DNA from: a virus
Strand: one strand, 5' to 3'
Length of the DNA stretch: 64,000 nucleotides
IMG/VR virus record: IMGVR_UViG_3300007177_000160
Location: 1-64,000 of that record
Positions within the stretch are counted from its first letter, which is position 1, and each line of letters begins with the position of its first letter. Shown here one piece after another: positions 23,214 to 28,509 of the stretch. A program made the translations under genes and the position numbers. Below the pieces are notes generated by a model. That model saw only the letters and a list, made by a program, of their open reading frames with translations, was not told the DNA's origin and did no database searches.

Positions 23214-24101
23214 GTCGTTTTCTTGGGTGTTACACTTCTCTAAAACCTGTGTAATAATCGTAGAAATTGTACTTCAGCTCCAGCTCTCGGCTAAAATCAG
23301 TGTATTTTGCAGTTTTGTTTAACTTTTTTGGTCTAACCCCCGTAAATTTGGAGACCTTTAAATTAAAAAGTTAAACAAAATGACAATTCAATGACACAAA
23401 TTGAGGTAAAAAAGGGTTAAAAAGTGGGGATTTTCCCCTCTCAGTCCTTTAATTCTTTCCTAAAAACAAGTCATTTGGTTGAGGCTTGACGTATAGAAAT
23501 AAAGAGGATTCGGTTAAAAGAGTCAGACAGATGGGCTTAACTGGGTTTATTATCGTCTCTATTGTTCTTATCTCTCCCTCTCCTTCTCTCTCTCTTTTCT
23601 CTTTCATTACCTCTTATTAAGGTAATGAACTAATCAGTGTTATGCGCGGGTTTCGGCTCCTGCTCTCTATTGATTCTTTATTAATTCTTTATTGATTCTT
23701 TAAGGTTGATAAACCTTGACATGCCTATGGGGCTACTATGTTGTTCTTCTATTAAGGGTAGAAGTATCAAGCTTAAGCGAATTTCCTTGCTTAAAGCAAT
23801 GACAAGTTAGTGCAGACTTAAAAATTAGGCAGTCTATTACATCTATTATCGTATGATGTAAAGACTTTAAAGACTGGTAACAGTTACGATACAGTATAGA
23901 GAAACCACACTATACTTTATGCCAGGTTTGTGGTGAACCTGAATTTAGAATGTTCTATACGTATTAGTATAGACTTCGGTTTAGTAGGGGGTGTGCATCA
24001 GCTCTGAAATGTTAGGCGACATTTCTGCTACTAGATTTATTTTAATTTAAAAACTAAAAAGGGATATCAGCCGTATCCCGAAGTCCTCAAATAAGCAGAT
24101 T

Positions 24102-24864: not shown

Positions 24865-25020
24865 ATGGATATGATAATTAGAATAACAGCACCTGATGGA
24901 TTTACAGTAGATAAATCTTGGAAAGGGAATTTCTCTAATGAACAAGAGTTATTAGAGGATTTTGTAAATAGTCATACTTTTCTAGTAGGCTATAAGTTTG
25001 AATTAATTAAGGGGGCTTAG
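24865..25020 (+). CDS. Small hypothetical protein (51 aa), not in ORF track
   Basis: MDMIIRITAPDGFTVDKSW...; A-rich leader. Confidence 0.6.
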   Translation: MDMIIRITAPDGFTVDKSWKGNFSNEQELLEDFVNSHTFLVGYKFELIKGA

Positions 25021-25029
25021 GCTCCCTTT

Positions 25030-25337
25030 TACTTTAACACACCATAACTCACGTGGATATAAAGACTTCTTAGAACCGTGTCACCTCTCAAACTCTGAGT
25101 GACTTAAAGCTGATAACAGTAAACGAGCTAAGATGTAAAACCACACTGATTAATAGTTCTCTATACCAGATAAAACCTTAAGCCAAACGTAATGGTGGGC
25201 TAGTGTATAGAATGAAAGTTAATCAGTTTCCCAAGAGTGAGCAGTTGTAATACACCATACAGGTCTAACAGTCAGAATTCATTCAAATGATATCTACTGT
25301 ATGTTCAAGGTATTACAACTGAGTGTGGAGGGGAGTA
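25030..25337 (+). ncRNA. Twister-like self-cleaving ribozyme core with a 175-nt insertion
   Basis: P1 TACTT/GAGTA, UAA, P2 CACAC/GTGTG, P4 CTCAC/GTGAG, L4 TTCCCAAGA, P5 CAGTTGTAATAC/GTATTACAACTG and GAGGG, all in twister order. Confidence 0.6.
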
Positions 25338-25370
25338 TCCATGTACAACAGGCTGGCATGGCAGCAAAAT

Positions 25371-25428
25371 AAACTACAAGGTATGGTAATCCTACTAACA
25401 CAGCTAGCGGACCTTGTAGTTTTTTTTT
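25371..25428 (+). terminator. Long-stem terminator after the ribozyme
   Basis: AAACTACAAGGT...ACCTTGTAGTTT followed by a T-run. Confidence 0.7.
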
Positions 25429-25452: not shown

Positions 25453-25707
25453 ATGAGTAATCTTACTTGGACCACCAAAGACGGCACTGTTATGTATGTA
25501 GACAATATGTCTGATGAACATGTCCGCAATGCTTTTAAAATGCTTCTTAGAACTATCAATAAACTTAAAGCTGAAAAACAAAAAAGTGTACGCAAGTTTA
25601 CACTTAGTGGAGATATGGCTCAACAGTTTAATCAGACAAACTTTGAAGATGAAAATGACGAAAGATTAGATGAAGTTTGGGAAGACGTATCTTTTCTTAA
25701 TCACTAA
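25453..25707 (+). CDS. Hypothetical protein
   Basis: WTTKDG......MSDEHVRN motif common in small phage proteins. Confidence 0.75.
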   Translation: MSNLTWTTKDGTVMYVDNMSDEHVRNAFKMLLRTINKLKAEKQKSVRKFTLSGDMAQQFNQTNFEDENDERLDEVWEDVSFLNH

Positions 25708-26596: not shown

Positions 26597-26671
26597 GGCG
26601 TATTCGTCTAACGGTCAGGACAATCACTTTTCGAGTGATAAATAGTAGTTCGATTCTGCTATACGCTACCA
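26597..26671 (+). tRNA. tRNA-Glu(UUC) with encoded CCA
   Basis: GGCGTAT/ATACGCT acceptor, ATCAC-TTTTCGA-GTGAT anticodon arm, AGTAG-TTCGATT-CTGCT T arm, ACCA end. Confidence 0.92.
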
Positions 26672-28180: not shown

Positions 28181-28255
28181 TGCGGAGAAGATGAGCTGGT
28201 GCACACCGATGTCTCATAAGCATCGACTAGGTTGGTTCGATTCCAACCTCCGCAA
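28181..28255 (+). tRNA. tRNA-Met(CAU), atypical D arm
   Basis: TGCGGAG/CTCCGCA acceptor, GATGT-CTCATAA-GCATC anticodon arm, GTTGG-TTCGATT-CCAAC T arm. Confidence 0.8.
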
Positions 28256-28328
28256 CACGCGCTGATTGGTCTCAGCAGGAGCCTCTACCCTAGGCGAAGA
28301 AGTGGATTAACCACCACAAGGGTAACAT

Positions 28329-28398
28329 AGTCAGGTGGCGTAATTGGTAACGCCTTGGTTTATTACAAGAGATACGAGTTCGAGTCTCGTCCTGGCTG
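28329..28398 (+). tRNA. tRNA-like RNA with aberrant anticodon arm (identity undetermined)
   Basis: AGTCAGG/CCTGGCT acceptor, GCGT/ACGC D stem and ACGAG-TTCGAGT-CTCGT T arm are intact; anticodon arm is CTTG-GTTTATTA-CAAG (4 bp, 8-nt loop). Confidence 0.7.
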
Positions 28399-28509
28399 CG
28401 AGAACTGCCTACACAGTTCGGGTTTTCATCATATTGATTTTTTTTTGATTAGTGAATTAAGGCCTTGTAGGGGGCCTTTTTTATTATCAGTACAATTAGT
28501 ATAATCGAT

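Follow-up and report, generated by a model that had tools for sequence, protein, structure and literature searches.

Does the stretch at positions 25030-25337 of this viral DNA encode a working twister-type ribozyme, and if so, what does the long block that splits its core contribute? The window analysed here is a stretch of 64,000 nucleotides covering positions 1 to 64,000 of a virus record that is 114,265 bp long and has terminal repeats (IMGVR_UViG_3300007177_000160). Within it, a sequence-only reading had pointed to a type-P1 twister core interrupted by a 175-nt insert of two domains, and had proposed that the result is either a switchable or allosteric ribozyme or a cargo RNA embedded in a ribozyme. 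The segments quoted in that reading, including TTCCCAAGA at 25228-25236, GTGAG at 25237-25241 and A25322, were all recovered where it had placed them. The site lies in a 430-nt intergenic gap flanked by small ORFs on the same strand (24865-25020 and 25453-25707), and almost all DNA runs that contain the ribozyme stretch are from freshwater or other aquatic metagenomes.

The core elements all lie on the plus strand. Both the sequence and the MFE fold support P1, in which the 5' strand TACTT (25030-25034) pairs with the 3' strand GAGTA (25333-25337). The L1 5' strand UAA (25035-25037) follows and holds the predicted scissile bond, U25035/A25036. Next are the P2 5' strand CACAC (25038-25042), paired with 25323-25327; the L2 5' strand CATAA (25043-25047), in which C25043 is the candidate partner of G25235 in pseudoknot T2 (one pair); and the P4 5' strand CTCAC (25048-25052), which pairs with 25237-25241 across the 175-nt block. 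This block (25053-25227) separates the P4 5' strand from loop L4 (UUCCCAAGA, 25228-25236), where U25228 and A25236 form a closing pair, CCC (25230-25232) is one strand of pseudoknot T1, and G25235 is the T2 base. The P4 3' strand GTGAG (25237-25241), supported by shift-tested pairing and by RNAalifold, leads into the P5 arm (25242-25321), which has a 12-bp base, CAGUUGUAAUAC/GUAUUACAACUG (25242-25253 with 25310-25321), and a variable interior. The linker A25322 and the P2 3' strand GTGTG (together 25322-25327) were assigned from the sequence and the alignment, while the L1 3' strand GAGGG (25328-25332) places G25328 at the conserved catalytic guanine position and supplies GGG (25330-25332) as the other T1 strand. 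An unconstrained MFE fold of 25003-25340 contained an upstream hairpin, P1, P2, P4, both insert domains and P5, with a z-score of -3.24; no fold as good was obtained from 100 shuffles.

Relatives of this element are numerous. The first homologues, loci L001 and L006, came from matching the L4/P4' word exactly against IMG/VR; in each locus an insert-free and an interrupted copy stand side by side. The copies in L001 are ~500 nt apart; the uninterrupted one reads TAA-TGCAC-CATAA-CTCAC-TT-CCCAAGG-GTGAG-P5-A-GTGCA-GAGGG, and the second carries a block of roughly 200 nt at exactly the insertion site seen in the window. Since L001 holds an uninterrupted copy, the insert-deleted form exists in nature, and the homologues with and without the insert that the earlier reading had called for are both found. 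Searching IMG/VR with wider words uncovered a large family that is phage-only among the matches listed. A strict descriptor (YAA, P2, L2, P4, optional block, CCNAAAG, P4', six P5 pairs, P2', RANGG and the third T1 pair) gave 132 matches in 3.2 Mb of loci, against 1 in reversed-sequence controls, and its only match in the 114-kb genome is the ribozyme site. By this descriptor the family comprises at least 125 unique sequences in the 3.2 Mb of loci, 71 of them uninterrupted and 54 with the block. An insert-internal word followed by L4, P4' and the base of P5 was also found in about 60 further loci among those listed, with the same two-hairpin block at the same site. The family is type-P1 twister-type, with a P5 arm and usually no P3, and belongs to a clade of uncultured freshwater phages.

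Family twisters also occur in tandem. Locus L315 has four copies (one uninterrupted and three interrupted) spaced ~150-650 nt apart, and L276 has three; short spacers or small ORFs separate the copies in such arrays. On the minus strand of L074, ~280 nt upstream of an interrupted copy, lies the sequence CAA-TGCAC-TAA-CCCGTAAAGG-TGAA-CAGTTATAG...ACAACTG-A-GTGCA-GAGAG, which has no clear P4 or L4. This twister-like extra copy may be a degenerate or minimal relative.

A blastn comparison with deposited phage genomes gave no match to the ribozyme region, a protein-based locus search with the upstream ORF returned no related locus, and a scan of genome contigs yielded only six MAG contigs with inconsistent labels, from which no host was called. 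Conserved parts of relatives are present in two metatranscriptomes, as contigs only that carry no information on ends, strand or level and so speak neither for nor against cleavage.

Evidence that the interrupted core is maintained comes from pairing across the family. P4 was assessed in 59 unique interrupted members that were picked by two insert motifs and an L4-like word only, which avoids circularity. Across the block, 94% of cells were paired, compared with 27-52% when the partner strand was slid by 1-2 bases, and compensating changes were seen at all five pairs. For P2, T1 and P1, 41 members located without using pairing were examined. P2 was paired in 204 of 205 cells at the true register (2-78% in shifted registers), with compensating changes that include UGCAC/GUGCA to CACAC/GUGUG and C-G to U-A at pair 5. 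T1 was paired in all 123 cells and covaries as CCC:GAGGG, CCU:GAAGG and CCA:GAUGG, which has happened several times and also within interrupted members; one T1 mismatch was seen, in L299. P1 is weak across the family, with 58% of cells paired against 40-54% when shifted, which fits the reported dispensability of P1 in twisters (PMC6154101). The first nine pairs of P5 are paired in at least 94% of the 125 members listed, with 3-6 pair types each. RNAalifold, applied to a MAFFT alignment of 32 members, recovered P2, P4 across the block, P5 and the closing stem of the first insert arm (Pa), with compensating changes at 18 of 27 pairs, although this test is less independent because its 32 members came from the pairing descriptor.

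Taken with the presence of every core element, the compensating changes in P2, P4, P5 and T1 uphold the proposed type-P1 core, and the covariation of P4 across the block places the insert exactly between the P4 5' strand and L4, as had been claimed. The proteins that flank the family loci share only 30-50% identity with those of the window, yet the ribozyme core hardly varies, a pattern which suggests that the RNA is strongly constrained within one phage clade.

Assignment to the twister class rests on several shared features. An N-A scissile step followed by A, as in the twister cleavage-site rule (PMC11662667, PMC5408937), is present as U25035-A25036-A25037, and UAA occupies this place in all 41 relatives located without pairing. 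The L4 word UCCCAAG at 25229-25235 is that of the rice twister (PMC11662667), T1 (PK2) joins CCC at 25230-25232 to GGG at 25330-25332, and both bases at the catalytic positions, A25036 and G25328, are in place and conserved throughout the alignment. T2 (PK1) is reduced. Only C25043:G25235 fits, being C:G in 114 of the 125 members listed and U:G in 4, whereas T2 of known twisters consists of two pairs, GC:GC; the base that follows AAG changes in step with the first base of L4 and not with its T2 partner. As read from the letters, then, the features by which twisters have been manually recognised in published work (the rice L4 word, the NA site, the catalytic A and G, and a complementary T1 strand) are all found here.

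The Rfam twister model RF03160 (68 positions, cut-off 67.2 bits) gave no match in the native region, at the gathering cut-off or at E<=10, or in the whole genome, and the expectation that covariance searches would miss the window copy was thus correct. The same reading had looked to the insert-free form for an Rfam score. With natural insert-free copies standing in for the insert-deleted sequence, none was obtained: at E<=10, RF03160 matched nothing in insert-free relatives, in L001 and L006, in ten family loci, in L100 or in L101, a compact copy with a short P5. P3 is found in 78% of known twisters and P5 in 1% (PMC6154101). Because the insert-free copies carry the published twister features, and the family is without P3 and has a long P5, the Rfam miss appears to reflect the narrowness of the model.

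Two other ribozyme classes were considered and rejected. Twister-sister (RF02681) had no match at E<=10, and T1 is present and covarying. The words UGAAGA ... GAAA in Pa recall a hammerhead, but helix I is missing, Rfam gave no hammerhead match at E<=10, and the essential G has been lost, since most members read UAAAGA where the hammerhead core has CUGANGA.

The 175-nt block consists of two arms. Pa (25053-25144, 92 nt, plus strand) has a GUGG/CCAC closing stem, an internal loop (AUAUAAAG / AAAA), an inner stem with an invariant U.U pair and a variable tip. Pb (25145-25227, 83 nt, plus strand) is closed by ACUGAUUAA/UUAAUCAGU and likewise ends in a variable tip. In the family, the Pa closing stem follows the pattern GURG/CYAC, with its third pair G-C in 37 members and A-U in 21, so that it is paired in 58 of 59; stem positions of Pb show 3-6 pair types, for example AAUAACUAG/CUAGUUAUU in L218. 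The division of the insert into two domains, GTGG/CCAC and then ACTGATTAA/TTAATCAGT, had been read correctly, as both stems covary and both are present in the MFE fold. Four pairs in from the junction, the Pa internal loop reads AUAU(A/G)AAG / (G/A)AAA in nearly all of the 59 members. Two members, L060 and L113, have Pa replaced by a bare hairpin and keep the rest, which indicates that the Pa loop is not required by the fold.

The arms are joined to the core without spacing. There are no linker bases at the P4/Pa or Pb/L4 borders, and no bases between Pa and Pb in 55 of 59 members. The first and last bases of L4 covary (C..G in about 42, U..A in 6), so the UU...AAGA of the window is a compensated form and not a defect. 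As the block interrupts an extended P4 helix without linkers, four helices meet in a perfect four-way junction: P4, Pa, Pb and the short stem of L4 (U25228-A25236). This agrees with crystal structures, where P4 is continued by a Watson-Crick pair and a U.A pair made of bases formerly counted as L4 (PMC5408937), so that the block interrupts one strand of the extended helix. An arrangement with the arms beside a stacked P4/L4 stem also agrees with high-throughput tests, in which position 1 of L4 tolerated imperfections in the twisters tested (PMC11662667). Apart from this first and last L4 pair, no coupling of Pa-loop variants to other positions was seen.

The interiors of the arms have a different history from the core. 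The Pa arms of the window and of L128 (L128:4139-4230, minus strand) are 98% identical; their 5' cores differ, and the remaining modules are unrelated (Pb 48% and P5 52% identity). The Pb of L128, in turn, is 96% identical to that of L172. In eight of nine pairs of members that share a module, another module is unrelated. Judged by these comparisons, hairpin interiors are swapped between phages by recombination, and recombination at conserved stems would explain the mosaic tips. L128 also has a P3-like hairpin in L2, and P3 and the Pa/Pb arms can therefore coexist.

Several explanations of the interrupted copy compete with that of a functional ribozyme with peripheral arms. It is highly improbable that the element is an inactive relic, that is, a twister-like fold that no longer cleaves or that was disabled by the insertion. 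A relic would account for the missing Rfam score and the reduced T2, but it is hard to reconcile with the retention of all catalytic-site bases in the window, with compensating changes in T1 and P4 specifically within interrupted members, and with some 60 independent interrupted copies that keep the core. Since P2, P4, P5, Pa, Pb and T1 show compensating changes, the interrupted form is under selection. The idea that a twister core processes or presents variable Pa, Pb and P5 tips (small RNAs or decoys, for example), exchanged between phages as cargo, draws on interiors that are highly variable in length and sequence and on their mosaic nature, as in the shared Pa of the window and L128 and in the eight of nine module-sharing pairs. 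Simple recombination at conserved stems, however, predicts mosaicism equally well. Every one of the 60 unique Pa/Pb modules listed, found by an insert-only motif, sits inside a twister, and the tips have no conserved sequence, Rfam match or recurrent neighbour gene, which makes the earlier suggestion of an embedded cargo RNA a weak one and leaves this explanation improbable.

A switchable ribozyme, in which the Pa loop senses a ligand or protein, or CCACACT (25141-25147) pairs with AGUGUGG (25321-25327) and blocks P2, also seems unlikely. The complementarity of CCACACT and AGTGTGG noted from the sequence is real, with seven of seven pairs in the window and, by eye, also in L001 and L006, which share the CACAC P2; the switching role attached to it is not supported, as the competing helix has only 3-5 of 7 pairs in 35 other relatives tested, and a switch of this kind would at most concern the small sub-lineage of the window, L001 and L006. 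Because CCAC and AC are constant in the arms, this helix arises automatically whenever P2 is CACAC, and the MFE fold prefers the active secondary structure. The near invariance of the Pa internal loop and of the U.U pair does point to a specific contact, but no Rfam aptamer matched the region at E<=10, and L060 and L113 keep everything else with a bare-hairpin Pa. A more specific version, in which the Pa loop senses a protein of phage or host, a small molecule or some tRNA-like partner, and expanded phage twisters are natural allosteric ribozymes, is very unlikely; were it true, the expanded twisters would time the separation of transcripts during infection.

We consider it quite likely that 25030-25337 is a functional-looking type-P1 twister of a two-arm subfamily, built around a perfect four-way junction with the arms as peripheral elements. 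Self-cleavage of such a ribozyme would fall at the U25035/A25036 bond. P4 and the L4 stem would keep stacking on each other as in an ordinary twister, Pa and Pb would stack on one another beside the core, and this geometry would leave CCC at 25230-25232 free to form T1 with GGG at 25330-25332. The arms would act as peripheral elements and not as a switch, and the Pa internal loop, 4 bp from the junction, would most likely be a site of tertiary or protein contact that helps or tunes folding. After cleavage, the upstream message would end in the hairpin at 25009-25028 and bear a terminal cyclic phosphate. A 5'-OH would begin the 3' product, a structured RNA that would contain the whole folded ribozyme and probably end at a terminator-like hairpin at 25374-25428. 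This product may be a discrete non-coding RNA of about 390 nt and not an mRNA leader. The predicted outcome is in line with a role proposed for bacterial and phage twisters, the processing of polycistronic transcripts (PMC6765202).

The hairpins on either side of the ribozyme differ in how far they recur. The upstream one, AAGGGGGC-TTAG-GCTCCCTT (25009-25028, plus strand), is directly upstream of P1, was called as a terminator-like site and is present in the MFE fold. It matches P0, an optional twister stem (PMC6154101, PMC5408937), and 31% of family members have a stable hairpin at -45..-3, compared with 9-10% of control windows. The downstream hairpin, read from the sequence as CTACAAGG...CCTTGTAG followed by T9 (25374-25428, plus strand), lies ~40 nt 3' of the ribozyme. 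Terminator-like sites downstream were not enriched in the family, being present in 13 of 46 members and in 8-10 of 46 controls.

Further RNA elements lie nearby. A Hatchet ribozyme (Rfam RF02678, 73.1 bits) maps to 23696-23830 on the plus strand, 1.2 kb upstream of the twister, and the order of Hatchet followed by twister copies is common to L001 and L006. Three tRNA genes on the same strand are found downstream of the ribozyme in the window (26597-26671, 28181-28256 and 28329-28399, plus strand). In 30 of 32 cases among family loci, the closest tRNA on the ribozyme strand lies on the downstream side, usually 0.4-9 kb away. A role in tRNA processing was rejected, as a same-strand tRNA lies within 300 nt in only 2 of the 125 members listed. 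Near family twisters there are also Rfam tRNA matches with long insertions, in L105 (3697-3805, with a 36-nt block) and L055 (481-597, a 117-nt match); these may be intron-bearing or otherwise expanded phage tRNAs. Recurrent neighbouring ORFs in family loci are all on the ribozyme strand, and none is informative: the largest cluster covers 19 of the 125 members listed, and Pfam and PHROGs names gave no useful indication of function.

How does this element compare with known ribozymes? Type-P1 twisters with optional P0 and P5 (Roth et al. 2014, reviewed in PMC5408937 and PMC6154101), exemplified by rice Osa-1-4 and RF03160, have the same order of P1, U|AA, P2, L2, P4, L4, P4', P5, P2', GAGGG and P1'. 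Shared with them are the covarying T1 of CCC:GGG, the L4 closing pair plus U..A, a P0-like hairpin, and an intergenic position in a phage, close to a ribozyme of another class. Unlike the known twister, the window copy has two arms branching from the P4 5' strand below L4 to form a four-way junction, a T2 of one pair that is not GC:GC, no P3, a long P5 and no Rfam score. The auxiliary stems described in PMC5408937, PMC6154101, PMC11662667 and PMC10085705 are P0, P3 and P5 only, with no arm at the P4/L4 site, and the dedicated search for novel twister arrangements within this literature did not report any.

The four-way-junction form of twister-sister (PMC5660989; RF02681) is likewise a small nucleolytic ribozyme with a twister-like P4-type loop. 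However, its junction lies above P2 at the level of L2, it is without the twister pseudoknots, and it cleaves elsewhere, at C-A; the window copy has a T1 that is present and covarying and a UAA strand that is that of the twister. The discontinuous hammerhead of mammalian Clec2 genes, in the account cited in PMC6765202, is similar in that a small core is split by a long insertion and the halves rejoin to form the active site. It belongs to another ribozyme class, and as described there its insertion is several hundred nucleotides of unstructured mRNA rather than a folded junction module.

The natural hairpin ribozyme offers a parallel of another kind. In its four-way-junction form, a perfect junction flanks the catalytic loops, and the extra arms speed folding and are not needed for the chemistry. 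Its core is unrelated to that of the window copy, and the analogy concerns only how the arms might act.

In summary, the sequence and its relatives indicate that the window copy is a real, conserved and expanded twister-type ribozyme, with cleavage predicted. Twister is among the best-studied small ribozymes, and a covarying two-arm junction under its catalytic loop would widen the accepted plan of the class; the core would tolerate a large branch at position 1 of L4. As a large twister family confined to phages escapes Rfam-based annotation, the number of ribozymes counted in phage genomes is too low. The mosaic pattern of the arms further suggests that conserved ribozyme stems serve as joints at which phages recombine, and the family would provide a natural model of how peripheral arms act on a twister.
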